Shown in pieces: positions 3,308-60,401 of a stretch of 64,000 nt of DNA. The notes under the pieces are model-generated. The model searched no databases, was not told the DNA's origin, and was given only the letters and a program-made list of their open reading frames with translations. How positions within the stretch are numbered: the stretch's first letter is position 1; every line of letters starts with the position of its first letter. A program made the translations under genes and the position numbers. This DNA comes from a virus (taxonomy: Duplodnaviria; Caudoviricetes): the IMG/VR virus record IMGVR_UViG_3300035180_001680, one strand, 5' to 3'.

Positions 3308-3823
3308 TTATTTGTGGTATTTCTGTTCCATGGTTTTTGGAGTTCCGTCTTCGTTGAAACCGTAATCTCCATTATATTGAGATAATGCTTCTGCTTCCCA
3401 TAATAACATTTGACCTACTCTTGTTCCCGGTTTGATTTTCATTGGTCCACCATGAACATGTAAACATCCAGCCATTGAACCATTGTACCCACTATCATAA
3501 TTTCCTGATGTAATGAATACACCATTACGGTTTAGTGTTGATCGTGTAATAACAAAACCGGCTTCTGTTTCACCCATTTTGATAATATGATTGGTTGTAA
3601 TTTCGTAAGTTCCAGGTTCAAGAAACCAATAACCTTCTTCATCCAACGCTACTTCTTCTGTCTCACGATGTATTTTTGATTCTTCGTCAATTACGAATAA
3701 CGTCGGCTTGATTCGGCGAACTGTTTTTAATCGAAGATCAACAGCGTTTTGTTGAATACAATCTGCGTCTAAATTTGTTAATTCCGTTTTACTTTTTGAT
3801 GATGCAGCATGAACCATACTCAT
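3308..3823 (-). CDS. dCTP deaminase/dUTPase family protein
   Basis: VDLRL, RSTLNRNG, DSGYNG, GTRVGQ motifs of the trimeric dUTPase/Dcd fold. Confidence 0.85.
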   Translation of the reverse strand: MSMVHAASSKSKTELTNLDADCIQQNAVDLRLKTVRRIKPTLFVIDEESKIHRETEEVALDEEGYWFLEPGTYEITTNHIIKMGETEAGFVITRSTLNRNGVFITSGNYDSGYNGSMAGCLHVHGGPMKIKPGTRVGQMLLWEAEALSQYNGDYGFNEDGTPKTMEQKYHK

Positions 3824-4040: not shown

Positions 4041-4895
4041 TCATTCTTGTGCATACCAAACTCCACTGTCTTGCACTGTATCAAATAAACCAATAGTCAT
4101 TTTTACATTATGTTCAATTCTTTTTAAAGTTTCTTTGTCTTTTGTTAAAGGATAATCAAATTTAACAGGCATCTTTAACTTCTTTGTTGCCATATAACTA
4201 TCGGAATTTGTTGTATATTCATGACCGAGAATTGCAGCCCACACAGGTCCAGACGAATCAATCGTATCTAATGCTTGCATTCTCATTAGTGTGGGAATTT
4301 CCAATGCTGGTCCAGAATTTAATCCAAGATAATGGTGGTGTTTGTTGAAATTAAACAACCCTCTGTCAATCAACATTTGAGTCATTACGACTCTTGAGTA
4401 AGATGGGTCACACCAAGGAATAGCGTTTGGAACACCAAGAATAGACATTCCAATAATGTCAACATCGGAATTGTTAGCAGCCCAATCATATGAGGCGATC
4501 CAATCCGCCGTATCTCCGGTTACAGATTGTGGAACGAAGAAAGTTCCAAATCCAGCATCTTTGAATAATGGAATAAATTCTCTTGCAGCATCAATCGTTT
4601 TCGAAGAATGTTGAAAAGGATAATCTGGAAGAACTATAACATCAGCCCCACACTCGTGTCCCAATTCAATTAATTTTTCAGGTGAATATGGTTCTTTGAG
4701 TTCATAGGCTGAGTTGTCCATGATAATTAAGTCGTCTGATTCACTGAAATTTTTGTAGATTGATGCATACGTTTTGTCTTTTTCTACGAGATGAGCTAAC
4801 ACCAAATGTGTAGATGACAAAGCTGACATTTCAATATAATTAGTTGGAGCTATAAAACAGAATGATGGGGTGTAATCTTTTAATTGTTTTTTCAT
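4041..4895 (-). CDS. TGT-fold base-exchange enzyme (DpdA-like)
   Basis: IMDNSAYE, ADVIVLPD, HHYLG, TIDSS resemble TGT/DpdA motifs; adjacent to a QueD-like gene. Confidence 0.6.
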   Translation of the reverse strand: MKKQLKDYTPSFCFIAPTNYIEMSALSSTHLVLAHLVEKDKTYASIYKNFSESDDLIIMDNSAYELKEPYSPEKLIELGHECGADVIVLPDYPFQHSSKTIDAAREFIPLFKDAGFGTFFVPQSVTGDTADWIASYDWAANNSDVDIIGMSILGVPNAIPWCDPSYSRVVMTQMLIDRGLFNFNKHHHYLGLNSGPALEIPTLMRMQALDTIDSSGPVWAAILGHEYTTNSDSYMATKKLKMPVKFDYPLTKDKETLKRIEHNVKMTIGLFDTVQDSGVWYAQE

Positions 4896-5364: not shown

Positions 5365-5859
5365 TTAATTTGTTGATAAGGAAAGACTGGTTTCGACGGG
5401 AATAAGAGAACCAACTGGAATATTTTCTGTAGATGTAACTGTATTTAATTTCCCATGTGAACGAACTGTTAGCACATAACCAATAATAACTGTATCTCCA
5501 GGAATCATGTTACAATGAACAACTGGTTGGGGTGAGTAAGGAGTTTGTGGACTTGCCAGTTCTTGCCCAGTGACTGTTCCAACGGCAGCACCAACACCCG
5601 TTGCAATCAATTTTCCACTACCTCCACCAATTGAGTGTCCAATAACACCACCAGCAATTGCTCCAAGAACTGCTCCAATATTTGAATTTTGTTGGATGTA
5701 TTGTTGTGGTGCTTTTCCTGTTTGATAATCATTGACGCATACTTGTCTCATACCTGTAGTTCCAAATTGAGGTTTTGAGGCGAGAACGTGAACGTATTCT
5801 GTTTCCGCATAACACAAACTACTCGACAGTAACAACACGCTTAATAGAATACTTTTCAT
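5365..5859 (-). CDS. Secreted glycine-zipper 2TM protein
   Basis: Signal peptide plus GAVLGAIAGGVIGHSIGGGSGK. Confidence 0.8.
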   Translation of the reverse strand: MKSILLSVLLLSSSLCYAETEYVHVLASKPQFGTTGMRQVCVNDYQTGKAPQQYIQQNSNIGAVLGAIAGGVIGHSIGGGSGKLIATGVGAAVGTVTGQELASPQTPYSPQPVVHCNMIPGDTVIIGYVLTVRSHGKLNTVTSTENIPVGSLIPVETSLSLSTN

Positions 5860-5930
5860 TTTTCAATCTCCTAATAGAAAATGGGGTTAATAACCCCATT
5901 ATCCCACTTTACCTTAAAAAGTCAACCGAA

Positions 5931-6917
5931 TTATAAGTCCAGATATTGCTTTAACGTCTCAACTCGCGAGGAAGATTCGTTTTCAAGTTCCGCCCAGCGT
6001 AGTATTCTTTTAATACCAGTTGCTTTATCTCTAAATTTCACCAAATGTGAACTTGTTAAGTCGTTGAACAATTTAACAAGTTCACCATTGGTTAAATTAT
6101 TCAGTTTGTTTTCAATTTGTTTAATATCTCTACGGTCTCCAGATTGTTTAGTTGGATACACACTTTTTTCAAAAACATCTTGTTTGTGGGCTGTTACAGA
6201 ATCAACTTCTCCATAAACTTCATATTTCCAACAACGTCCTTTAGTGTTGTTGTAGTCCCTCGGAATAGATACGACATCTGCTGGGTTGATTTTAACTAAA
6301 ACAACTCTTGTATAATTAGGATTACCACCGTAATTTTCGAGGTATGATTGAGAACAGAAGTGTAATCCTTTTGAGCAGGTATTATTTCGATTGTCGTCAA
6401 CTTGGTCCCTTGACATCTCACATATACTTCCTACAGAATTGTCAAAAGTTCCAGAGTATATATCTTTATAATCTAATCCAACTTTTTTGTAAGCAAGAAA
6501 ACAACCATCTTCAGTAATTGGCATATTTCCAGATTCCAAAAAATCATATAATTCATTAACGGCCGTTGAACTTGGATTTTGTAATAAATTTGCTAAAAAC
6601 TCCACCATTGGTTTAACATCAAAACCATCTTTCCACATTTTAAAAATTCGGGAAGTGAGTGTATTGTGAATCGTTTTACCACCATACGTAACGACTTCAT
6701 AGTCAAAATCTATGTAAAGTAAATTATTTTGTTGTTGGTTCATTTGTTTGTCAAACCAAGTTTTAATATTAAGAAGTGATTCAATGTTTTCCCAATCTTG
6801 GTTGCGAATAGCGTTATAGACTTCAGTGAAATTCCGGTGAGTCTGGTCAATTGTGTACGCTTTTGAATCAATCGTAATTGATATAAACGTGTCTGTCATA
6901 ATATAAGGGTAAGCCAT
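5931..6917 (-). CDS. rIIB: rIIB-like protein
   Basis: PITEDGCFLAYKKV, TCSKGLHFCS, VKINPADVVSIP; directly downstream of rIIA. Confidence 0.9.
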   Translation of the reverse strand: MAYPYIMTDTFISITIDSKAYTIDQTHRNFTEVYNAIRNQDWENIESLLNIKTWFDKQMNQQQNNLLYIDFDYEVVTYGGKTIHNTLTSRIFKMWKDGFDVKPMVEFLANLLQNPSSTAVNELYDFLESGNMPITEDGCFLAYKKVGLDYKDIYSGTFDNSVGSICEMSRDQVDDNRNNTCSKGLHFCSQSYLENYGGNPNYTRVVLVKINPADVVSIPRDYNNTKGRCWKYEVYGEVDSVTAHKQDVFEKSVYPTKQSGDRRDIKQIENKLNNLTNGELVKLFNDLTSSHLVKFRDKATGIKRILRWAELENESSSRVETLKQYLDL

Positions 6918-9227: not shown

Positions 9228-9641
9228 TCACACCATTCTCCCAAAAGTAATATGCATATTGTTAATTGGTTTGAATCCAAGTTCTTTTCTATAGTCGTTT
9301 AATTTTTTGCTACGAACAGGAAGTGCGAAGAATTTCCAATGTTGTTCAAATTCAACATTGTATTCGAACGTGATGATTTCACCAGCATGAGCTTTCCACG
9401 TGTTTCGAAATTCAGGCTTAACTGGATACCGTCCATCAAGAACTGTGACATGAGCTTTCCACGCTGGAAGTTGAAGTCGAAGCCCCCACATTCTTTCAAC
9501 CCACCAATTGTAATAATTTGCAATACGGGGGTCCGTTTCGACGATTAACCACCAATCATCGTTTTGGCGAGTTTTCCGAAGTTCTGGACGTTTTGGTTCA
9601 TATACAAGTTTCCCTGTTGCTTTAACCCAATTAGTCGTCAT
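9228..9641 (-). CDS. 2H phosphoesterase family protein
   Basis: Two HxT motifs (AHVTV, MHITF) about 65 aa apart. Confidence 0.7.
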   Translation of the reverse strand: MTTNWVKATGKLVYEPKRPELRKTRQNDDWWLIVETDPRIANYYNWWVERMWGLRLQLPAWKAHVTVLDGRYPVKPEFRNTWKAHAGEIITFEYNVEFEQHWKFFALPVRSKKLNDYRKELGFKPINNMHITFGRMV

Positions 9642-9704
9642 GATGTAAACCCCAAATTTTATATCAAATATAATTATACATCATGAAGACATAAGGGTCA
9701 ACAA

Positions 9705-9917
9705 CTACATTACTAGTTTTTTTGGAAACTTCTTTTTTCGTAATTTTTCCACGACCGCCCAACATGTAATAGCTTGTTCTTCACTTACAGTTACATCATC
9801 AGGCCACAGACCAAATTCATCCATCGCATATAACGCTTCGGAGAGATCACCGACTAACTCGGGGTCATCTTGTTCAAAAAACTTTGATACTTGTTCTCGG
9901 TGTTCTTCATATTCCAT
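9705..9917 (-). CDS. Hypothetical protein
   Basis: Acidic small ORF in operon. Confidence 0.45.
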   Translation of the reverse strand: MEYEEHREQVSKFFEQDDPELVGDLSEALYAMDEFGLWPDDVTVSEEQAITCWAVVEKLRKKKFPKKLVM

Positions 9918-10139: not shown

Positions 10140-10784
10140 CTAATCAATCCCAACGATTTTTTCAATTTCAACCCGAACGCGTTCGGCTGCGACACTGGTG
10201 TATGCTTCGTTGAACATTTCTCGACAAGCCTTTAAAGATTTCGGGTCTGGAGTAAATCCACGGCCAACAAATCTGTAAAAACGGATTACCCTCAAGTAGT
10301 CTTCTTTGATACGGTCTTTGGGTTTTCCAACAAAACGTAACGTTCTCGTTTTAATATCGTCCATTCCCATACCAGTTGGGTCAATAAGCTCCATCGTTTT
10401 GGTGTTAATGTATAATGCGTTTACGGTAAAATCGCGACGGTGAGCATCATCATCGATTGTTCCCAATTCAACTTCCGCGTGGCGACCATCACATACCACA
10501 TCTTTTCGGAAATTGCTGACTTCAACGGTATAACTACTGAAATGGACGTTAAGCACAAAGTGTGCGACACCAGTCAAAGACACTTCAAATCCACCGTCTT
10601 CAAACAGTTCGATTAACCGTTTCATTGGGATATCCGTAACGATGTCGTAATCATTTGGAGTTTTTTCCATCAACAAATCACGAGTCGCTCCCCCCACAAC
10701 GTAATTGTTGTCAGAAAATGCGTTTAGTACTGTAATAATTGGGAATAACTTAATTGGGCACGTTCTTTTAAAATCAATTTTCAT
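10140..10784 (-). CDS. tRNA nucleotidyltransferase (CCA-adding/poly(A) polymerase class II), head domain only
   Basis: VVGGATRDLL, DYDIVT, RRDFTVNAL, EDYLRVIRFYRF; ends at about 214 aa. Confidence 0.9.
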   Translation of the reverse strand: MKIDFKRTCPIKLFPIITVLNAFSDNNYVVGGATRDLLMEKTPNDYDIVTDIPMKRLIELFEDGGFEVSLTGVAHFVLNVHFSSYTVEVSNFRKDVVCDGRHAEVELGTIDDDAHRRDFTVNALYINTKTMELIDPTGMGMDDIKTRTLRFVGKPKDRIKEDYLRVIRFYRFVGRGFTPDPKSLKACREMFNEAYTSVAAERVRVEIEKIVGID

Positions 10785-11115
10785 CAAAGATCCTTTTTGC
10801 AGCAAAATCCAGTGTTGATAATAAAACTGGTAATGTAGTATCAAGAACACGTATACCTTGTTGTAACCAGTGTAGTATCGTGTGTTGTTCGTAAGATGTT
10901 GTGGGTATTGGTTTAATTCGTTCTGTTAATAAAAGTTGTTGATCCATATCAAGAGACGCGTTAGTCTCTTTGAGAACACAACCAATAAAGGCCCGTGCTG
11001 CCCAAGGATGGGCTTCAACGATTGTTTCTACAAAACCGGGTGTGAACGTAAGAATTTTACGCCCTGGTGTTTTTGATTTTCGTAATGTGTGGGTTTTCAT
11101 AAAGAGTATTATCAT
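10774..11115 (-). CDS. Hypothetical protein
   Basis: ORF in operon. Confidence 0.45.
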   Translation of the reverse strand: MIILFMKTHTLRKSKTPGRKILTFTPGFVETIVEAHPWAARAFIGCVLKETNASLDMDQQLLLTERIKPIPTTSYEQHTILHWLQQGIRVLDTTLPVLLSTLDFAAKRIFDEN

Positions 11116-11455: not shown

Positions 11456-12241
11456 TTAACTATTCATTTTTTGTTCATGTTGTGCAATTTTCTTTTTGAT
11501 TATTTCGTGAGCAGGAGTTCCAGGCTTTGTTTTTGATAAAGCCGTTTTGTGAACTTCTAATTCCTTTTTGAGTCGTTCTTGTTCCGCCGCTCTTCTACTG
11601 TCTTGCATTTGTTTAATTACACGTTGTTCTACTTCTTCTCTTGATTCTTTCCGGCGTAGTGTTACTCTATCGTTCATATCAGACCAAGCACGGTATTCTG
11701 AATTTCGTTGTTCGATTAGCATAGATGATTGTAATTTCATAAATGTGTCTTCATTAGCTAATTGCATAGGCATTAACTGTATATATTCTTCGAAATTATT
11801 TGTCCGAATTGCTTCTCTTACATCTGTTGCGGATGTAATTCGGGGTGTTTGTTTTACTTGAATATTCAATCCTGTCTTTTTGTTACTCTCTTCAACAATT
11901 TCTCTATATCGCTTAATTCTGTCTTCACCAGCATAAATTGCACGAATTTGTTTTCCTTCGTTTTTTAAATGAAACAACATTCCATTTAAGTTAGCGTTCA
12001 TTACTTCGATTACAATTGCAGAAGGAAATACTTCATGTATTAACGATTTTTGTTGTTTAAACGATAATGGATTGTTAACTTTATCTTCTGAAGAGTTTTT
12101 GCCTTTAACAACTGCGATTATAGGATTCTTCATAGATTCAATTATAGAAGCGTGCCCTTTGTGGAACGGTTGGAATCGTCCCACAAATAAATCATATTCT
12201 TGTCCTTCTTCAATGAGATACTGTTTAAACGTCTTTGTCAT
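11456..12241 (-). CDS. Cytidylyltransferase/NMNAT-like HIGH nucleotidyltransferase
   Basis: FVGRFQPFHKGH; N-terminus MTKTFKQYLIEE. Confidence 0.8.
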   Translation of the reverse strand: MTKTFKQYLIEEGQEYDLFVGRFQPFHKGHASIIESMKNPIIAVVKGKNSSEDKVNNPLSFKQQKSLIHEVFPSAIVIEVMNANLNGMLFHLKNEGKQIRAIYAGEDRIKRYREIVEESNKKTGLNIQVKQTPRITSATDVREAIRTNNFEEYIQLMPMQLANEDTFMKLQSSMLIEQRNSEYRAWSDMNDRVTLRRKESREEVEQRVIKQMQDSRRAAEQERLKKELEVHKTALSKTKPGTPAHEIIKKKIAQHEQKMNS

Positions 12242-13359
12242 TTCACTATTCCTTGTTCACGAAGCACTGAAACTATTCTATTAATAGTTTCTTTTCGCTC
12301 TTGTGTTAACCCTTGTTTTATATTTATTCTTTTCTTTTCTTTTTGTAAAAGATTGGCAAGAGTGATGTATAATTCTTCAGCCCACCAATGATAATTATTA
12401 ATTAATGGACCCATAAACAACGGAAGAAGTGAATACGTTATGTTAGAAAAACGTTGCTCTTTTTGAACTAACATAAATTGGTTAAGGTTTTTAAGTTCTT
12501 CACTGTGTATCATACACATTAACAATGTTAATCTTGATATAAAGTAAATGAAAGTGTCATCTGTGGTTTCGTCTAGTGAGAATGTGGTATGTTTTATATA
12601 TAGATCCACGTCCTCTTCTAAATGTTGAAATATAATATCCGTTAACAGTTTCTTAAAGTCACTCATTTCATTATATCGTTCTTCTTGTTTATCTGAAGTA
12701 AACAGTGGGTCCACAAGTTTTGCAGAACATTTATTGTTTTCAAAGTAAAATACAAGCCCCTCATATCCCCCTTCGTGTAACCAACTTAAGTGTTCTGGTG
12801 TTTTGAATATAGACATAATATATTCAATAAACTCTTTTCCGCCATATTTGTGTTTTCGTTCTTCTGCTGACGTTATAACAAATGATTTAATTTGTTTTTT
12901 CTGGTTTTCTGATAATTTTCCACTGAACAACACAGGAGGTTCAGAAATGTCTAATAGAGATGCAATACGTTTATTTTCAGGGTTAGTTGGTAATAGTGTA
13001 GAACCACTCTGATTAATATATGACAATATTAAGTTGTTTTTGGGTTTAGTTGAATATTGGACTTTAGTTTTTAGTTTTTCGTTAAACAATTCCAAATATA
13101 TTTCAGAATTATCTGGAATTTTGTTGGATAAAAGAGGCTCAATATGATGAATGCAATCTTCATAAATGTCCATCGTTGAACGTTTTATGTTATTAATTTC
13201 CCCACGACCTTCTCTTCCGTGGTAAGAAAATATTCCATCATTCTTCTTAATTACAAATGCACACTGGTCAATCTTCACGTTGATAACCACAGTATCATTC
13301 AAAAGATTATCCAAATAGGTGTCACCTTTTTTGGTATAAATGTCGTGTAAATGTTCCAC
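12238..13359 (-). CDS. RNA-ligase-like nucleotidyltransferase-fold protein
   Basis: VKIDQ (motif I-like), PVLFSG, YEGLV (IV), AKLV (V); motif I is non-canonical. Confidence 0.45.
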   Translation of the reverse strand: MEHLHDIYTKKGDTYLDNLLNDTVVINVKIDQCAFVIKKNDGIFSYHGREGRGEINNIKRSTMDIYEDCIHHIEPLLSNKIPDNSEIYLELFNEKLKTKVQYSTKPKNNLILSYINQSGSTLLPTNPENKRIASLLDISEPPVLFSGKLSENQKKQIKSFVITSAEERKHKYGGKEFIEYIMSIFKTPEHLSWLHEGGYEGLVFYFENNKCSAKLVDPLFTSDKQEERYNEMSDFKKLLTDIIFQHLEEDVDLYIKHTTFSLDETTDDTFIYFISRLTLLMCMIHSEELKNLNQFMLVQKEQRFSNITYSLLPLFMGPLINNYHWWAEELYITLANLLQKEKKRINIKQGLTQERKETINRIVSVLREQGIVK

Positions 13360-13366
13360 TTTTAAT

Positions 13367-13936
13367 TTATATTTGATATGTTAATTTTGGTAATCCTTGA
13401 TGGGAAAAATCCACGTTTAGTAGGTTACAAGCCCGAGCGTGGTGTTCCAATGTCAAGCCAATCTCATACTGTATATAAAGTAGATGTGATTCAATATCAG
13501 GTATTAATATGGAAGCAGACGGACTTATTAAGTCAGGGTCATCATCAACGATGATGAAATTGTCAACATAATGAACATCCAACCAACGTTTTATTTCTTC
13601 AGTTCTCCCACCATCACCGGCTCTTGGTGTGTGCCAATTTTGGTGTAACTGAATTTTCAAATTGTTGTTTTTGAATGTCAGTTCAATTTGTTCTCGAGAC
13701 GCATAATGAAACCAGTTTGATGAAATAACTCCAACAACATCATTGTTCTCTGTCCACACGTTAAAGAAACTGACGGCAATTGGGTCAAATTTAACAATGT
13801 TGTGTAAATCCTTGTGTCCAAAGGGATGATTTCCAGATTTTCGGGATTCATTTAAAAGTTGAATATTTTCAGGTAGACACCAAGCTCTACGTGGAAGTAG
13901 TGGTCCGTCGATGTCTATAAATATGATTTGTGACAT
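13367..13936 (-). CDS. HAD phosphatase (Swiss-Army-Knife RNA-repair-like)
   Basis: IFIDIDG, ISSNW, RTEEIKRWL, FIIVDD. Confidence 0.85.
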   Translation of the reverse strand: MSQIIFIDIDGPLLPRRAWCLPENIQLLNESRKSGNHPFGHKDLHNIVKFDPIAVSFFNVWTENNDVVGVISSNWFHYASREQIELTFKNNNLKIQLHQNWHTPRAGDGGRTEEIKRWLDVHYVDNFIIVDDDPDLISPSASILIPDIESHLLYIQYEIGLTLEHHARACNLLNVDFSHQGLPKLTYQI

Positions 13937-16980: not shown

Positions 16981-17069
16981 TGCTCCGGTCCGAGGAATCG
17001 AACCTCGCCTCCTTTCGGAGCCTTCGCATTAACAGTGCGAGACCTTCACCAAGCCAGTCCGACCGGAGC
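16981..17069 (-). tRNA. tRNA-Asn(GUU), long variable arm, no encoded CCA
   Basis: TCGCA-CTGTTAA-TGCGA; V-arm CTCC-GAAA-GGAG. Confidence 0.85.
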
Positions 17070-21773: not shown

Positions 21774-21858
21774 TGGTACCACCGGTTGGAATCGAACCAA
21801 CTTTGAGGTTTCCCTCCAGGATTATCGGTCCTGTGCCTAACCTATCGGCCACAGTGGT
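21774..21858 (-). tRNA. tRNA-Ile(GAU), long variable arm, C33
   Basis: CAGGA-CCGATAA-TCCTG; V-arm GAGG-GAAA-CCTC. Confidence 0.8.
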
Positions 21859-49449: not shown

Positions 49450-50370
49450 TTTACTTTGTATAAGGTTGAGATTAAACCTATACTATTGATACCTTCGAGA
49501 CATTATCTCATCACCTGCTACAGCTAGAGTTCTTCTCTTATCCACATAATCAGCTTTCGCACAACTATGTCTATCAACATGACTGCATTTTTTAAGTGGT
49601 TGCTTTTCCACCAACATGTAAAGCTACTCGATTATCTGTCTACCGCCAACCTTGCGAGCTGTACAAGAGCGCTAACTCTCTGCGTGCGACTTTCTTTCAA
49701 CATCCTCGACCTTGCGAGTTTTGGACGCCTTCATTACCTTGCGGCTGAAGGATTAAGCCATTTTCACTTTACACTGGAAACGTCTTTGCGTTTTATGTAA
49801 TATAATCCAAATTTATATGGGCTGTTAACCCTAACATTGTTAAACCTACCAAGAAGTGCGTTTCCAGTGGATTTCATACCTTTTGAGTATAAAAATACCA
49901 CACTCCTCATGTTTTTCATCTGCCGACTACTCAACCAGTTTTCAGGAATCGTGACACCCTATTACAGGTACCAAAACCCCCTCAACTTGCACAACAGCCC
50001 TTACTTGCGGGTTCGGACCACTGTACTACCCTTTACCTTTTGAGATGGCTAGTTTGTGTAGGCGTGAGGTCGGCACAACCCGTTACTCTCCAAATGCCCA
50101 AGTTCCCTGCAGAGCAGGCTTGTAAACATTCGTTCTTTCCACACCCCTAACTTCCCTCATATGACTACCGTTGGCGATAATCAGCTCCTTTCGGAGTAGG
50201 TCAGGCTTGCTTGTTTGTACCCCTTACAGGGCGCGGTAGTTGTAGGACCTACCGCTTTCACAACATCGCTGTTGGTTACTTTGCACAAGCGCGTAATTCT
50301 TTATCTTTTAAATTGTTTCTGATGAAACGTTCTGAATTCACAGAACTAATTAAAAGAGTGACTTTCTTAA
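49450..50370 (-). ncRNA. Giant structured ncRNA, GOLLD/ROOL-like
   Basis: About 900 nt without a credible ORF; many GCAA/GAAA-capped hairpins on the minus strand; downstream of a tRNA; TTGACT promoter near 50410. Confidence 0.6.
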
Positions 50371-50906: not shown

Positions 50907-50981
50907 CGGTGCCCAATGTCGGAATCGAACCGACGGTCAAGTGTTTTAGAAGCACCTGCTTTACCATTAAGCCAATTGAGC
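50907..50981 (-). tRNA. Amber suppressor candidate tRNA(CUA)
   Basis: GGTGC-TTCTAAA-ACACT in canonical register. Confidence 0.65.
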
Positions 50982-52696: not shown

Positions 52697-54033
52697 CAAT
52701 CTCTCAACTAAGAAAACCCCAGATGCTTCAACATCGGGGATGAATTAGTTGATCTCTCTTCTAACTTCCCCCATAAATACTCTTATACAAAGGGAGAACA
52801 CCACTTGCATAAAGCATACACGTTCCGATTAAATCCGACAACAGATCAGGAAACCGCGCTGAAACAGACAGGTGGATCAGTTCGTTGGTTGTGGAACCAA
52901 ATGTTAAAAGCAAATATTGACAAATATGCTGCTGAGGGGAAGTTTAATTTTCAGTTCGATATGAACCGGATGACAACGAAGTTGAGGGCCGAGATTCCGT
53001 GGCTTGAAGAGGTGAATAGCCAGGTTTTGCAGCAGAAAAACAGGGATTTAGATAAATCAATCAAAGCAAAAATCGCAAGGAAAACCAAACAGACTGGATT
53101 TCCTAAATTTAAGAAAAAGACAGAAAACAATGATTCATTTCGAGTTCCTGGTGGTTTTAAGTTATCGAATAAAGGCGTAAAATTGCCTAAAATCGGATGG
53201 ATTTCGTGGAAAATCAATAGAAAACTTCAGGGGAAAGCGAAAAATATTACATTTAAACAAGTAGGTGATAAGTGGAACGCAGTTGTTTTGTGCGAGATTG
53301 CTGATGTAGAACCAAGAACATTGTTTTCTGATGCCGAAGTTATCGGAATTGATGTTGGAATTAAAGATTTTGCTGTGTTGAGCAATGGAAAGAAGATTGC
53401 TAATCCCAAGGACCTTGAGAAGAGTTCTCGGTTGTTAAAGAGAAAACAACAATCACTCTCTAAGAAGGTTAAAGGATCTTCCAATCGAATCAAAGCAAGA
53501 AAATCTGTTGCTAAGTTGCACAGATCTGTAGCAAATAAAAGAAAAGACTTCCAGTGGAAACTAGTTGATTTGATAACCAAAAATCACTCAGTTGTTTGCA
53601 TGGAAGACCTGAATATTAGCGGAATGGTCAAGAACAGAAAGTTGGCTAAATCAATCGAATCTGCTGGATGGAGAATGTTTAAAGAAAAACTTAAACATAA
53701 ACTAGCAGAGACAGGTGGTTTGGTTGTCAATATCCCTAGATTTGCTCCATCTTCTAAAATGTGCTCATCGTGTGGAGCATTAAATCATTCTCTGACTCTA
53801 AAAGATAGAGAGTGGAAATGTGATTGCAATGCTGAACACGATAGAGACATTAACGCTGCGATTAATATTCGGAATATTGGTTTAAATACGCTGGGAACTA
53901 GCGGAATTTACGCCTGTGGAGTTGCCTCTGATGGGGATATAGCATATGATATATCTAGTTATGCAATGATGAAGCAGGAAAATCTGGGCGTTGGCCTGGA
54001 AGCCCCAAATGCTTTAGCATTGGGGTAGTTCAC
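52697..54033 (+). mobile_element. IS200/IS605-family (IS1341-type, tnpB-only) element
   Basis: TAM TTTAT, left-end hairpin CCCCAGATGCT..CATCGGGG, right-end hairpin ending TTCAC; excision restores the host reading frame. Confidence 0.92.
52805..54028 (+). CDS. tnpB: TnpB RNA-guided endonuclease
   Basis: HTH N-terminus; RuvC GIDVG, MEDL, DRDINAA; CSSCG/CDC zinc finger. Confidence 0.95.
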   Translation: MHKAYTFRLNPTTDQETALKQTGGSVRWLWNQMLKANIDKYAAEGKFNFQFDMNRMTTKLRAEIPWLEEVNSQVLQQKNRDLDKSIKAKIARKTKQTGFPKFKKKTENNDSFRVPGGFKLSNKGVKLPKIGWISWKINRKLQGKAKNITFKQVGDKWNAVVLCEIADVEPRTLFSDAEVIGIDVGIKDFAVLSNGKKIANPKDLEKSSRLLKRKQQSLSKKVKGSSNRIKARKSVAKLHRSVANKRKDFQWKLVDLITKNHSVVCMEDLNISGMVKNRKLAKSIESAGWRMFKEKLKHKLAETGGLVVNIPRFAPSSKMCSSCGALNHSLTLKDREWKCDCNAEHDRDINAAINIRNIGLNTLGTSGIYACGVASDGDIAYDISSYAMMKQENLGVGLEAPNALALG

Positions 54034-54804: not shown

Positions 54805-55074
54805 TCAGTGTGAAAGCCACTGGAGTGCCATATCAATATCGTTATCTAATATATCAACAAGACGTTTTTCCCAGTCATAAGTTGAACTAATATTTACCAT
54901 TCCTGGGACGTTTATATCCATTGGTTCAAATAACACAATAGCCATTTCACAATCAGAAACAAAATCAACGAAACCGACGATTTTATCATCAGAATCGTCT
55001 AGGACGAAACATCCAGGATATCCATGCTCAATATTCTCTTGAGTTGCTTTTATTTTGTAATATTGAGTTATCAT
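54805..55074 (-). CDS. Hypothetical protein
   Basis: Operon packing. Confidence 0.5.
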   Translation of the reverse strand: MITQYYKIKATQENIEHGYPGCFVLDDSDDKIVGFVDFVSDCEMAIVLFEPMDINVPGMVNISSTYDWEKRLVDILDNDIDMALQWLSH

Positions 55075-55520
55075 TGTTTTAGTAATCCTTTAATAATATC
55101 AGATGCAACTTTCCCGTCATACATGCCCCCGTGTGTATTTTTTAGATATTGCATAATAAGACCTGTTCCGTTTGATGTTGCAATCCCACCATTTAAAATA
55201 AATTTAGTAATAACAGAAGTCAATTCTTCAACGGAAAGTTGTTTCGGAAGGTAATATTCCAAAATTTCTCGTTCAATTTCTAACGCGTCACGCCAGTCAG
55301 CATCCTGTCGGTCACCAGCGTAAGATATATTTTCGTTGACACCTTTAAGGAATTTTTTAATTGTGTTTATAACTTCTGCATCGGTTGGGTCTCTAGGTGG
55401 TGTAGCATTTTTTCCAACCATCAACGCTTCACTGTAAAGTGTGGTCAACAAACTTACAGCGTCGGATTTAGATTTACGTGCAACAATTTGGTCAGTTTTA
55501 ATTTGTTCAATAAGAGACAT
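55071..55520 (-). CDS. GatB/YqeY domain protein
   Basis: IKTDQIVARK...EILEYYLPKQLSVEEL...GLIMQYLK...DGKVAS. Confidence 0.85.
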   Translation of the reverse strand: MSLIEQIKTDQIVARKSKSDAVSLLTTLYSEALMVGKNATPPRDPTDAEVINTIKKFLKGVNENISYAGDRQDADWRDALEIEREILEYYLPKQLSVEELTSVITKFILNGGIATSNGTGLIMQYLKNTHGGMYDGKVASDIIKGLLKQ

Positions 55521-55994: not shown

Positions 55995-56624
55995 CTATTT
56001 AAATAAAGAGGGTAATGCAACTGAACCACGTTGAACAACAACTGCGTCATCATTATTATCAGCATAAAAAAAGTATTGAGAGTTATCAGCATACACAATT
56101 TTCCAATATCCAGACGGAATTGGAAGACCATTAATTGTTTGTTTGTTTTCGTATACTGCTATCGTTACAACATAAACATCTGTTTTTGAAGAATCAAAAA
56201 TACTTCTTACTTTTTCTTCTAGTAACTTCCACTCAACTCTATTTAAAGTTGGAGATTGTGGAGTCATATTTGTCAATAAAAAAGTTTCTTTCATTTCTTC
56301 TAAAGAAGATGCATCATCAGCAGGTGCCATATGACCTTTGTCATAATGTGTTTTTAAATATTGGCGGTTGTTAGGAACAAAACCAACCCTATCATCAGAA
56401 TGAAAATTGTTTGTTCGTTTTACTGACCCTACTGGGGAATTGTGTTTCAATAATTCTGATACAGCAATTACCTTGTGGTTGATAGTGTCATAATCCGATA
56501 CGTAAAAACTATTACAAAGTTCAGTAGTATTAGGAATGTTAAACGGTTTATGATCTGGGTATAGTTGAGGACAGTCTGCAAACGCGAAAGAAGAAACTAA
56601 AAGAAGCCCAAATAGAAATTTCAT
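55995..56624 (-). CDS. Secreted DNA/RNA non-specific endonuclease
   Basis: Signal peptide; YDKGHMAPA, TFLLTNMTPQ, LNRVEWKLLE; TATAAATA upstream. Confidence 0.9.
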   Translation of the reverse strand: MKFLFGLLLVSSFAFADCPQLYPDHKPFNIPNTTELCNSFYVSDYDTINHKVIAVSELLKHNSPVGSVKRTNNFHSDDRVGFVPNNRQYLKTHYDKGHMAPADDASSLEEMKETFLLTNMTPQSPTLNRVEWKLLEEKVRSIFDSSKTDVYVVTIAVYENKQTINGLPIPSGYWKIVYADNSQYFFYADNNDDAVVVQRGSVALPSLFK

Positions 56625-57730: not shown

Positions 57731-57853
57731 TGGTTGTTGTGGTAGGACTCGAACCTACACAAGCTGCTGGAAGGGTTACTATTTTAGTCTGTCTTCACAG
57801 AGCTCCCCACTATGATTCCACCGCCGGGGTATACCAATCCCCCTCACACAACA
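57731..57853 (-). ncRNA. tRNA-scaffold RNA with a branched insertion replacing the anticodon loop
   Basis: Intact acceptor, D and T arms and CCA; about 50 extra nt. Confidence 0.6.
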
Positions 57854-58157: not shown

Positions 58158-58661
58158 TCACTTTCTGTGTTTAATACACCGAGTTGAAATCCAACCCCGG
58201 CCACCCACAGTTCCTCGTGCACCACACACTTCACAAATCATTTTACTTTGATATTCAGCAAACTGAATTGCTGAATATTGTTCTTCGGTTGCGTTAGAAA
58301 CATAAAACCGAAGAGTTCCAAATTTTTCTTTCACTTGCCGAGCAACAGGAATCGAAAGTTCTGCATCATCCATCCTTACTTTGGTTGCGGCAATCAACTC
58401 AGTTGTGATAATAGGGTTAAAATCACTTTCAGGACTACCTGGATACAAAAGTTGACCAAGGTTAGGCACCATACGATCGTATGTGTATTTCTCATAGATC
58501 CAATCGCTGCACAAAAATTCAGACAATTGATTAATAAGATTAAACCAACCATCTCCACAAGTAACCCCCCAACACATACAAGTTTCACTCATCGGAAGAG
58601 TGTGTTCTTTATATAGAGCAGGATACTTCTTAAAAAGATAATTTTGATAATGTCTGTTCAT
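58158..58661 (-). CDS. Hypothetical phage protein
   Basis: CGDGWF...QVKEKFGTLRFY...CEVCG...WISTRC. Confidence 0.65.
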   Translation of the reverse strand: MNRHYQNYLFKKYPALYKEHTLPMSETCMCWGVTCGDGWFNLINQLSEFLCSDWIYEKYTYDRMVPNLGQLLYPGSPESDFNPIITTELIAATKVRMDDAELSIPVARQVKEKFGTLRFYVSNATEEQYSAIQFAEYQSKMICEVCGARGTVGGRGWISTRCIKHRK

Positions 58662-59246: not shown

Positions 59247-59348
59247 TGGTGGCCACAGGATGGGAATTTAACCCACTTATCCAGAGGAATGGGAGCTACG
59301 CCTCGAGGAATCTCCCACAGTGCTGTTTCAACTACACCTATCTGCGCC
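59247..59348 (-). ncRNA. tRNA-like RNA with a 16-nt anticodon loop
   Basis: TGGGAG-ATTCCTCGAGGCGTAG-CTCCCA; T-arm; CCA. Confidence 0.5.
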
Positions 59349-59439: not shown

Positions 59440-59536
59440 TGGAACCGTATTGCAGTCACGCTCTGCCTGTGTTGCACCTGGACTCCAAGTACAACTCTTA
59501 TTGATTCTTACCAGCACCTACTGGAATGATACGGTA
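59440..59536 (-). ncRNA. tRNA-like RNA with non-canonical arms
   Basis: ACCGTAT/ATACGGT stem plus CCA; GCAG-AGCGTGA-CTGC in the T-arm position. Confidence 0.4.
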
Positions 59537-59544
59537 ATATTTTT

Positions 59545-59627
59545 TGGTGCCCCAGACGGGAGTCGAACCCGTAAAAACCTGCGTTCTTAGCGCAGTAGCT
59601 GTACCAATTTGCATTTGTCACCAGGGC
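59545..59627 (-). tRNA. tRNA-Leu(AAG)
   Basis: CTGCG-CTAAGAA-CGCAG; CCA. Confidence 0.8.
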
Positions 59628-59760
59628 AATATATCATGTTTTAATCTTTATAAATGTTCACGTTCTAACTGTTTTCTTGTGTATCGAATTGTGGTTCGTT
59701 TAAATAACCAGATACCACCAACAAAGCGATTGTTCCAAATAACACACAACAGGACAAACT

Positions 59761-59837
59761 TGGTACCCAACCTCAGATTCGAACTGAGAACCACAACGTT
59801 CTAAGCGTTGCCGCGTTACCAATTAGCGTAGAAGGGT
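59761..59837 (-). tRNA. tRNA-Leu(UAG), short variable loop
   Basis: CAACG-CTTAGAA-CGTTG; CCA. Confidence 0.85.
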
Positions 59838-59846
59838 ATTAAATTT

Positions 59847-59936
59847 TGGTGGGGAGAGGACAGAATCGAACTTCTTGCCACGAGGGACAGGGGCTACAAC
59901 CCTGCGCCAGGACCACCTAGCCTTATTTCACTCCCC
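59847..59936 (-). tRNA. tRNA-Tyr(GUA), divergent
   Basis: CAGGG-TTGTAGC-CCCTG; weak T-stem. Confidence 0.65.
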
Positions 59937-59943
59937 TTTATTT

Positions 59944-60029
59944 TGGAACGCTAGGTAGGATTTGCACCCACGTGGGCTTTCACCATCTGCTTTGCAGGCA
60001 GTTCCGTTCGTCTACTCCGGCACTAGCGC
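59944..60029 (-). tRNA. tRNA-Cys(GCA), long variable arm
   Basis: CTGC-CTGCAAA-GCAG; U73; CCA. Confidence 0.85.
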
Positions 60030-60035
60030 ATAAAT

Positions 60036-60154
60036 TGGTGGGCATGGTAGGAATCGAACCTACTCACCACGAGGGAACGGATTTAGTCGAGAACACTGGA
60101 AAACCAATGCTCTCTAGTCAGTCCGCCGCGACTCTCCAACTTCGCCGCATGCCC
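60036..60154 (-). tRNA. tRNA-Tyr with a 33-nt hairpin insertion in the anticodon
   Basis: GCGGA-CTG[33 nt]TAAA-TCCGT; Tyr-type body; CCA. Confidence 0.75.
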
Positions 60155-60169
60155 CAAAATATTTCAAAT

Positions 60170-60181
60170 TTTTAAATAACA
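60170..60181 (-). promoter_or_regulatory. boxA-like element
   Basis: TGTTATTTAAAA after terminator 4. Confidence 0.5.
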
Positions 60182-60190
60182 GTTTACAAC

Positions 60191-60222
60191 AAAAAAGCCT
60201 GGGTCTTTCGAGCCAGGCTTTC
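60191..60222 (-). terminator. Intrinsic terminator of attenuator 4
   Basis: AGCCTGGCTC-GAAA-GACCCAGGCT followed by a T-run. Confidence 0.9.
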
Positions 60223-60240
60223 TTTTGGGATTTTTTCTCT

Positions 60241-60336
60241 TTACATCTTGGTAATTCCCCAAACGGCGACCTGGCTCTTATCCAATATGGATAAAGACCC
60301 GAGTGATAGACAATAACCTAATCCGTTTGTGTTCAT
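60241..60336 (-). CDS. Leader peptide 4 (Leu/Ser/Gly/Tyr/Cys/Ile-AUA): MNTNGLGYCLSLGSLSILDKSQVAVWGITKM
   Basis: 31 codons, RBS AAGGA; GAGCCAGG (60270-60277) is an exact complement of terminator 5' arm CCTGGCTC. Confidence 0.9.
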   Translation of the reverse strand: MNTNGLGYCLSLGSLSILDKSQVAVWGITKM

Positions 60337-60372
60337 TTTGTAAATCCTTTAAGTAATTAATTCAGTGTTATA

Positions 60373-60401
60373 AGTATATATGACTTATTTATAAAAGTCA
60401 A
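60373..60401 (-). promoter_or_regulatory. tRNA-operon promoter 4
   Basis: TTGACT-TTTATAAATAAGTCATA-TATACT. Confidence 0.9.

Follow-up and report, generated by a model that had tools for sequence, protein, structure and literature searches.

A phage tRNA-Tyr gene with a 33-nt hairpin inside its anticodon: a candidate substrate for protein-based tRNA splicing, with a second copy in a distant jumbo phage

How could a bacteriophage obtain a tyrosine tRNA from a gene whose anticodon is split by a hairpin? To our knowledge, splicing of tRNAs by proteins is considered a feature of archaea and eukaryotes, and in the tRNAs of bacteria and their viruses we know of only self-splicing group I introns as established; a protein route of tRNA splicing is not yet shown for bacteria or their viruses. 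The gene studied here lies in a stretch of 64,000 nucleotides (the window, below), which represents the minus strand of a 178,796-bp IMG/VR virus record estimated by CheckV to be ~52% complete. On its minus strand the window carries 38 tRNAs plus one GOLLD RNA (49463-49908), which is situated among the tRNA blocks and has a full-length Rfam match of 198.8 bits. The interrupted gene and its upstream region consist of the following features.

60036..60154, minus strand: interrupted tRNA-Tyr gene, 119 nt, or 86 nt minus the insert, CCA encoded (ARAGORN intron mode and alignment)
60119..60154, minus strand: 5' exon, with the acceptor 5' strand, D arm, anticodon-stem 5' strand, C32, U33 and G34
60086..60118, minus strand: insert in the GUA-yielding register, 33 nt, being ACTA + hairpin + GAC
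60089..60114, minus strand: hairpin of 11 bp with a UUUU tetraloop (-16.9 kcal/mol, z = -6.3; constrained fold)
60115..60121, minus strand: 5' strand of a 7x7 internal loop, CUGACUA, of which CUGAC is common to the second carrier, L095 (see below)
60082..60088, minus strand: 3' strand of the 7x7 internal loop, GACUAAA, of which ACUAAA is common to L095
60036..60085, minus strand: 3' exon, with U35, A36, A37, A38 and the anticodon-stem 3' strand in its first part, and the long variable arm, T arm, acceptor 3' strand, A73 and CCA in the remainder
60401-60373, minus strand: promoter-like site upstream of the tRNA array
60241..60336, minus strand: leader ORF of 31 codons (..GLGYCLSLGSLS..), with a single Tyr codon and a Cys codon directly after it
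ending near 60190, minus strand: terminator-type hairpin between the leader ORF and tRNA-Tyr

On the whole, the body at 60154-60036 is a complete class II cloverleaf of bacterial type, with a 7-bp acceptor stem (GGGCATG/CATGCCC, G1-C72 present), a D stem of 4 bp, the anticodon stem GCGGA/TCCGT, a variable arm of 13 nt and the T arm GTAGG-TTCGATT-CCTAC, followed by A73 and the encoded CCA. Its anticodon loop has 40 nt instead of 7 and reads CT-GACTA-GAGAGCATTGG TTTT CCAGTGTTCTC-GACTA-AA; a contiguous GUA in a 7-nt loop is absent from the gene, and GUA arises only after removal of 33 nt. The region 60036-60154 is called neither by ARAGORN in its default mode nor by Rfam; the intron mode of ARAGORN reports a tRNA-Tyr(GTA) of 86 nt with a 33-nt intron at 60086-60118. 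Folded alone, the insert hairpin has the energy and z-score given above, and 0 of 200 shuffles equal it. Excision in other registers gives CTA, GAA or GAC, and only the register k=3 (cuts after the third loop base) gives Tyr. These results agree with the preliminary description, which had read here a Tyr-type tRNA body, split inside the anticodon by an 11-bp hairpin, with an anticodon that depends on the register of excision. Three functions had been considered there as possible: an intron spliced by proteins, a pre-tRNA activated by a nuclease, and a decoy.

The position of the insert is further fixed by intact relatives. The 3' half of the gene matches annotated tRNA-Tyr genes of two Alishewanella phages, this intact 3' half being the only match found in cultured phages. 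Aligned with the intact tRNA-Tyr of Alishewanella phage Slicko01, the body is identical in 73/86 positions, and the sole gap is the 33 nt at CTG|..|TAAATCC, i.e. between G34 and U35. Scanning IMG/VR with the D-arm sequence of the family returns 89 stretches; about 80 of them, 83-89 nt in length, are intact tRNA-Tyr(GTA) genes, none of which has an insert. The loop CTGTAAA is present in 76 of the 78 intact family members that could be parsed, and the GTA anticodon likewise in 76 of 78; joining CUG on the left to UAAA on the right gives exactly this family loop. A 106-nt 'tRNA-Ile' annotated in an Alishewanella phage was also considered as an insert carrier and rejected, being actually two normal genes merged.

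As had been proposed from the sequence, the gene is the first one after an attenuator, namely past the promoter-like site, the leader ORF and the terminator-type hairpin. The Tyr-Cys codon order of the leader is also the order of the first two tRNA genes of the array, and in the 179-kb record each of the 19 other amino acids has a tRNA, while a further canonical tRNA-Tyr is absent. Such a genomic context may point, as weak support, to a decoding role for the interrupted gene. It counts against decoding that several CCA-ending tRNA-like genes in the array cannot decode, so that this phage does retain tRNA shapes with no decoding role.

The insert is real DNA, stable in nature, and no assembly artefact. 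Four DNA runs from four studies of sediment and microbial-mat metagenomes contain the stretch, one of which may be the source sample, and in three of the four the gene is spanned by main contigs with 0-7 differences per contig.

X1: main contig over the gene, 59568-60401
X2: main contig over the gene, 59593-60401
X3: main contig over the gene, 59604-60401

For X4, the gene lies on a contig of its own, 151 nt long (60033-60183) and with zero differences, and within 60036-60154 no difference is listed in any of the four runs. Three runs also contain a more diverged relative, in which 60035 is joined straight to 60162, with the whole tRNA-Tyr gene missing and the attenuator leading directly into tRNA-Cys; 59853-59941 is skipped too. 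The gene is therefore a presence/absence polymorphism between relatives. The second skip covers a tRNA-like gene at 59852-59935 (minus strand), which has GUA in a 7-nt loop on a 6-bp anticodon stem, a D stem that likewise has 6 bp and closes a loop of 4 nt, as in tRNA-Sec (Rfam tRNA-Sec 23.5 bits, below the cut-off), a degenerate T stem, and a variable arm that shares TCCCTCGTGG with the interrupted tRNA-Tyr. In two runs, loose ends at 60119 read GGCGGA-CTGTAAA-TCCGTTCC on the minus strand; by their sequence, these are insert-free Tyr loops with an identical anticodon stem, from other genomes of the same communities.

Absence of the insert from relatives had been named, together with finding only unspliced or degraded RNA, as what would refute the first reading; a distant relative does keep the insert, in both position and architecture. 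A gapped pattern identified this second carrier, L095 (IMGVR_UViG_3300048831_000083), a 35-kb record covering ~10% of a jumbo genome. Its tRNA-Tyr has a 31-nt insert at the same site and, without the inserts, is identical to the window copy in 77/86 positions. By tblastx, only a few proteins are common to the two phages, at 29-54% identity. Apart from the interrupted tRNA, the 35-kb and the 179-kb records do not match at the nucleotide level; judged on this comparison, the phages are very distant. The two copies compare as follows.

T arm, anticodon stem, D loop, A73 and CCA: identical in the window and L095
Acceptor pair 5:68: A-U in the window to G-C in L095, both sides changed, pairing kept
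D-stem pair 12:23: G-C to A-U, both sides changed, pairing kept
D-stem pair 13:22: A-U to G-C, both sides changed, pairing kept
Insert hairpin: sequence mostly different, 11 bp in the window (z = -6.3) and a 10-bp tetraloop helix in L095 (z = -5.3)

A 5-bp block, AGCAU/GUGYU, occurs in both hairpins, showing that the two inserts are homologous; beside it the window copy has two more bases per side, and these extras pair with each other. In constrained folds, both copies have the 7x7 internal loop, CUGACUA/GACUAAA in the window and CUGACAC/CACUAAA in L095, and its size is kept although the base of the hairpin differs by 2 nt per side. Also conserved in both carriers are the seven exonic loop bases (CUG, UAAA) and the insert ends AC...AC. 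Architecture and insert position are thus conserved in a very distant jumbo phage, which favours intron-type readings over a decaying gene. In addition, the two copies appear to show selection on the tRNA stems, with conservation statistics that are thin for only two carriers, and the stem changes could instead stem from recombination between working tRNA-Tyr backbones and not from selection after insertion.

Exact and relaxed pattern scans of viral, metagenome and genome collections give no third carrier, the extra matches of the loosest pattern being chance matches in protein-coding sequence. In a descriptor scan of ~1 Mb of tRNA-rich phage DNA, the arrangement of stem, 7x7 loop and hairpin inside a tRNA is found only in these two Tyr genes. 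Running ARAGORN with a forced intron over 840 kb of phage loci produced mostly false parses and, after filtering, one gene in L057 and three in L004, none with the insert geometry of the window tRNA-Tyr. The L004 genes (3638-3769, 4092-4224 and 5816-5946, in another IMG/VR phage) are tRNA-like and share the insert ends ATCGTC...GATGGTTATC; the L057 gene (4899-5000) is tRNA-Arg(TCT)-like, with a 27-nt insert extending the anticodon arm to ~19 bp.

What, then, is the insert? A group I intron needs the catalytic core P3-P9, typically 200 nt or more. The insert has 33 nt, no catalytic core and no Rfam match at gathering thresholds or at E<=10, and so is too short for such an intron, as the first reading had it. 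The Rfam group I model, RF00028, does detect an intron in the same genome, the feature being as follows.

Genome 9390-9709, outside the window (L093 3005-3286): tRNA-Leu(UAA) with a 235-nt group I intron, Rfam Intron_gpI 61.5 bits

Both kinds of intron therefore coexist in this genome. Group I introns of bacterial and phage tRNAs, e.g. of tRNA-Leu(UAA), also occupy the same class of insertion site, 34/35; unlike them, the inserts of the window and L095 have no consistent U at -1 and no terminal G. A canonical bulge-helix-bulge (BHB), likewise denied in the preliminary description, is rejected by the constrained folds, in which the loop is an open 7x7 one in both carriers; the positions of the would-be central helix (CUGA against GACU or CACU) cannot pair. 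Small self-cleaving ribozymes have no Rfam match here. A hammerhead is a three-way junction with CUGAUGA and GAAA, and reading the CUGAC... strand in this way fails on there being only two helices and on core bases that are not conserved, the equivalents of G8 and G12 being U and G in the window and A and C in L095. A repeat derived from a MITE or IS, or another mobile element, is also rejected: the insert is single-copy in 179 kb, no exact copy was found elsewhere in IMG/VR, and the direct repeat GACTA of the window is not kept in L095 (GACAC/CACTA). By our own arithmetic, excision by RNase III with its 2-nt 3' overhang geometry would leave only 6 or 8 loop bases, and RNase P or RNase Z, if they treated the hairpin as a minihelix, would leave 13 loop bases.

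The reading that we prefer, at about even chances, is that proteins would remove the insert and reseal the exons to give tRNA-Tyr(GUA). The primary transcript would fold as a normal class II cloverleaf in which the anticodon stem is followed by the symmetric 7x7 internal loop and then by the tetraloop helix of 10-11 bp. A candidate protein endonuclease, possibly a two-fold-symmetric dimer, would cut each strand of the loop after base 3 (CUG|ACUA and GAC|UAAA). RNA-repair enzymes such as this phage encodes (HAD phosphatase, Rnl2-family ligases), or else a ligase of the host, would next heal and join the exons, which would yield tRNA-Tyr(GUA) with the normal family loop CUGUAAA. Here we infer excision as such, the places where the strands are cut, the enzymes involved and whatever regulatory or protective purpose the interruption may have. 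The geometry is suggestive: the strands of the 7x7 loop are related by a two-fold axis, cuts after k bases leave k + (7 - k) = 7 bases, and the preserved 7x7 size is the one required if a symmetric double cut is to rebuild an anticodon loop. Counting against splicing, the one signal known to guide splicing by proteins, a central helix of Watson-Crick pairs, is missing from the 7x7 loop, and a second short insert of the window (31259-31374) differs in geometry, leaving no common rule; moreover, a closer relative is without the gene, which is therefore dispensable. That second insert, on the minus strand, interrupts a tRNA in its anticodon loop by 31 or 42 nt (two ARAGORN calls); its CUGC/GCAG helix stacks directly on the anticodon stem with 5-nt bulges, and G+UA is again a possible anticodon.

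The BHB introns of archaea and eukaryotes, including the split tRNAs of Nanoarchaeum, share with the window insert the layout of anticodon stem, 7 + 7 nt and intron helix; if the insert is spliced as proposed, they would also share the two-fold-related cuts that restore a 7-nt loop and the need for ligation of the heal-and-seal or RtcB type. The BHB motif has 4 paired and 3 bulged bases per strand and is cut after position 6. The window insert, in contrast, has no 4-bp Watson-Crick central helix and no 3-nt bulges, its implied cut is after loop position 3, and no EndA homologue is found in the 179 kb. The setting differs as well, being that of a bacteriophage with encoded CCA and a GOLLD RNA, and, in the phage of L095, a tmRNA of betaproteobacterial type (130 bits; L096 18654-19027) that hints to the host. 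A wider form of the splicing reading, which we hold only tentatively, is that some bacteriophages may possess their own protein-based tRNA splicing, with a two-fold-symmetric endonuclease acting on a helix/7x7 loop/helix substrate by cuts after the third base, and with resealing by an Rnl2-type ligase and HAD/2H proteins, so that the split between G34 and U35, lasting until the transcript is processed, would give a switchable supply of tRNA-Tyr, protected from host nucleases that recognise an intact Tyr anticodon loop. Under this tentative form, the helix/7x7 loop/helix would be a functional analogue of the BHB motif, minus its base-paired core.

Short introns have been noted in phage tRNAs before. 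The tRNAs of Lak megaphages carry 'highly conserved introns', called enigmatic, one of them in tRNA-Tyr(GTA), where it measures 93 nt, follows position 37 and includes a T-loop-like element (Devoto et al. 2019, Nat Microbiol, PMC6784885). Like these, the window insert lies in the anticodon loop of a phage tRNA, is too small for a group I ribozyme and is conserved between phages; it fits the short introns of Devoto et al., a purely descriptive class (PMC6784885). The Lak intron nevertheless differs from those of the window and L095, which are plain tetraloop hairpins of 31-33 nt at 34/35 with a 7x7 loop, and the Lak and window phages are unrelated in host group and phage lineage. Our literature search found no paper giving a mechanism for short tRNA introns of huge phages. 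Among such inserts, that of the window comes close to being the smallest and simplest, since it consists of little more than a hairpin set within the anticodon itself. The independent, highly diverged copy of L095 fixes the constrained features as both half-loops, a loop of 7x7 and roughly one helical turn. The two diverged copies together define a minimal substrate of 119 nt and a geometric rule of symmetric cuts after loop position 3. If splicing is true, it would be a new RNA-processing pathway in phage biology, and the abundant and poorly understood RNA-repair genes of jumbo phages would be linked to a routine substrate.

With regard to the enzymes, the preliminary description had pointed to ligase-like, HAD and 2H proteins of the window, and these fare unequally. 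The HAD (13367-13936) is solid, a HAD_SAK_2 domain of the RNA-repair type with 59 bits. The ligase-like ORF (12238-13359), the second one in the genome, is probably an Rnl2-like ligase, a likeness that is supported by atlas features only. For the 2H-like protein (9228-9641), the match is a weak one of 19.8 bits, below the cut-off. Outside the window, an Rnl2-family ligase (PF09414; genome 7862-8377 region) is found with 107 bits, and the half genome also encodes a CCA-adding/poly(A) polymerase head domain (100 bits; 10140-10850) and a HIGH-type nucleotidyltransferase; an RlaP 'RNA repair pathway' protein is encoded by the phage of L095. Healing and sealing by phage enzymes would thus be plausible on the genes present. 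In the 179 kb, about half the genome, the EndA (PF01974), RtcB, T4 Rnl1 (PF09511) and RNase III families were not found. The ORFs adjoining tRNA-Tyr have no Pfam or PHROG assignment, and the genes common to both carrier phages, considered as nuclease candidates, turned out to be replication genes. The ORF embedded in the array at 58158-58661 (minus strand) belongs to a family of >4,000 relatives, mostly of phages; its product has an invariant QVKEK-G-LRF motif and, near the C terminus, three invariant cysteines and a nearly invariant histidine. Its AlphaFold model (pLDDT 96) has no informative fold match in the PDB (Foldseek E > 0.6; best Z of VIA 5.7 over 45 residues).

Repair of tRNAs is known from phage T4, in which the PrrC/Pnkp/Rnl1 system involves a cut in the anticodon loop and phage-encoded healing and sealing, for which the window phage has HAD_SAK_2 and Rnl2-family ligases. 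The T4 system, however, repairs a normal tRNA after one cut, whereas the window gene would need two cuts that remove an encoded segment, and a ligase of the T4 Rnl1 type (PF09511) is not found in the 179 kb of the window phage. Defence against nucleases offers another comparison, with nuclease-evading phage tRNAs, namely T5 tRNA-Tyr set against Retron-Eco7 PtuAB (PMC11555353) and anticodon-loop variants (PMC10264068). All of these, tRNA-Tyr among them, are shaped by host defences that cleave tRNA; unlike the window gene, they are intact decoders with point changes and no insert. The interrupted G34-U35 would presumably be no substrate for a nuclease that reads an intact loop.

The main rival reading, which we hold to be less likely than splicing, is that the RNA stays unspliced as a tRNA-shaped, non-decoding mimic of 119 nt with an extended anticodon arm. 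Such a mimic could draw off host nucleases that attack tRNA, or other proteins that bind it, in the manner of a decoy or sponge. Cleavage of tRNA, notably tRNA-Tyr, by host defences is documented, as are tRNA counter-measures of phages (PMC11555353, PMC10264068), selection on the cloverleaf stems fits a mimic equally well, and the array holds other CCA-ending tRNA-like genes with remodelled anticodon arms, i.e. 57731-57853, 59247-59348 with its 16-nt loop, 59440-59535, whose 11-bp arm has an apex resembling the hairpin of the Tyr insert, and 59852-59935; another phage (L057) has the 19-bp anticodon arm noted above. Yet the split loop destroys the very feature that a decoy of anticodon nucleases ought to copy. 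While the hairpin drifts, all seven exonic loop bases persist, as does the exact size of 7x7, for which a mimic has no obvious need, and the phage would be left without a Tyr tRNA despite having tRNAs for the 19 other amino acids. If the RNA does stay unspliced, it would add a mimic of a new type to the contest of phages and hosts over the cutting of tRNAs.

The remodelled genes 57731-57853, 59247-59348 and 59440-59535 (all minus strand) end in CCA and have intact acceptor stems, with a clear T arm kept in the first two and an expanded central domain in one of the three. The 16-nt loop of 59247-59348 is closed by a 7-bp stem and contains CCUCGAGG, and the 11-bp arm of 59440-59535 has a loop of 3 nt. 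Three places contain the 5-mer CUCGA: the Tyr insert, the second insert (31259-31374) and the 16-nt loop of 59247-59348. In addition, long extra variable arms, several of them GAAA-capped, are carried by class I tRNAs and are unusual for their isotypes.

35881-35967, minus strand: tRNA-Glu with a long variable arm
21774-21858, minus strand: tRNA-Ile with a long variable arm
16982-17067, minus strand: tRNA-Asn with a long variable arm
59944-60029, minus strand: tRNA-Cys with a long variable arm

The surroundings of the L095 copy bring in an explanation at the DNA level. There the gene is flanked by an HNH gene and two Seg-like (SegE-like) GIY-YIG endonuclease genes (L097 11814-14057), neighbours that fit horizontal movement of a tRNA-Tyr cassette. 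The insert might then be selfish or protective, a broken homing-endonuclease target or a repair scar in the mobile cassette, leaving a non-functional gene that hitch-hikes. Cooperation of a free-standing endonuclease gene with an intron is known for phage group I introns; Seg-like genes are common in phage tRNA regions, and the whole gene is a presence/absence polymorphism between relatives. We nonetheless judge this explanation improbable, since all three stem changes between the copies are compensated, and since strong divergence of the insert went along with an unaltered T arm, anticodon stem and set of exonic loop bases, which is unexpected for a dead gene. Furthermore, the insert is single-copy, no endonuclease gene adjoins the window copy, and no relative of the L095 endonucleases is found in the 179 kb. 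The homing-endonuclease link itself was rejected, the Seg-like genes being generic to phage tRNA regions and absent near the window copy.

It remains to weigh the register of the cuts within the splicing reading. The preliminary description had noted that cutting one nucleotide earlier gives CUA, and splicing one base earlier per strand would yield a supF-like amber suppressor, perhaps alternating with GUA. The register k=2 has the same two-fold symmetry, and both carriers keep its bases; Tyr-type CUA suppressors such as supF are charged by TyrRS, and the phage already has a tRNA with a CUA anticodon at 50908-50981 (minus strand). On the other hand, TAG is a normal, rare stop in the 179 kb, ending 9 of 132 long ORFs, where read-through adds <=9 codons, so that an amber-suppressing product is not called for; the family has GTA in 76/78 members, and no sequence feature prefers k=2 over k=3. 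An amber product is thus very improbable, and the suggestion of a CUA register gained no support, the GUA register being the one that restores the consensus loop of the family.

The tRNA region of the window also contains a gene of the TnpB/IS605 OrfB type at 52805-54028 (plus strand), with OrfB_IS605, Cas12f1-like TNB and HTH domains, and near it a DNA/RNA non-specific endonuclease (55995-56624) and a YqeY-like protein (55071-55520).
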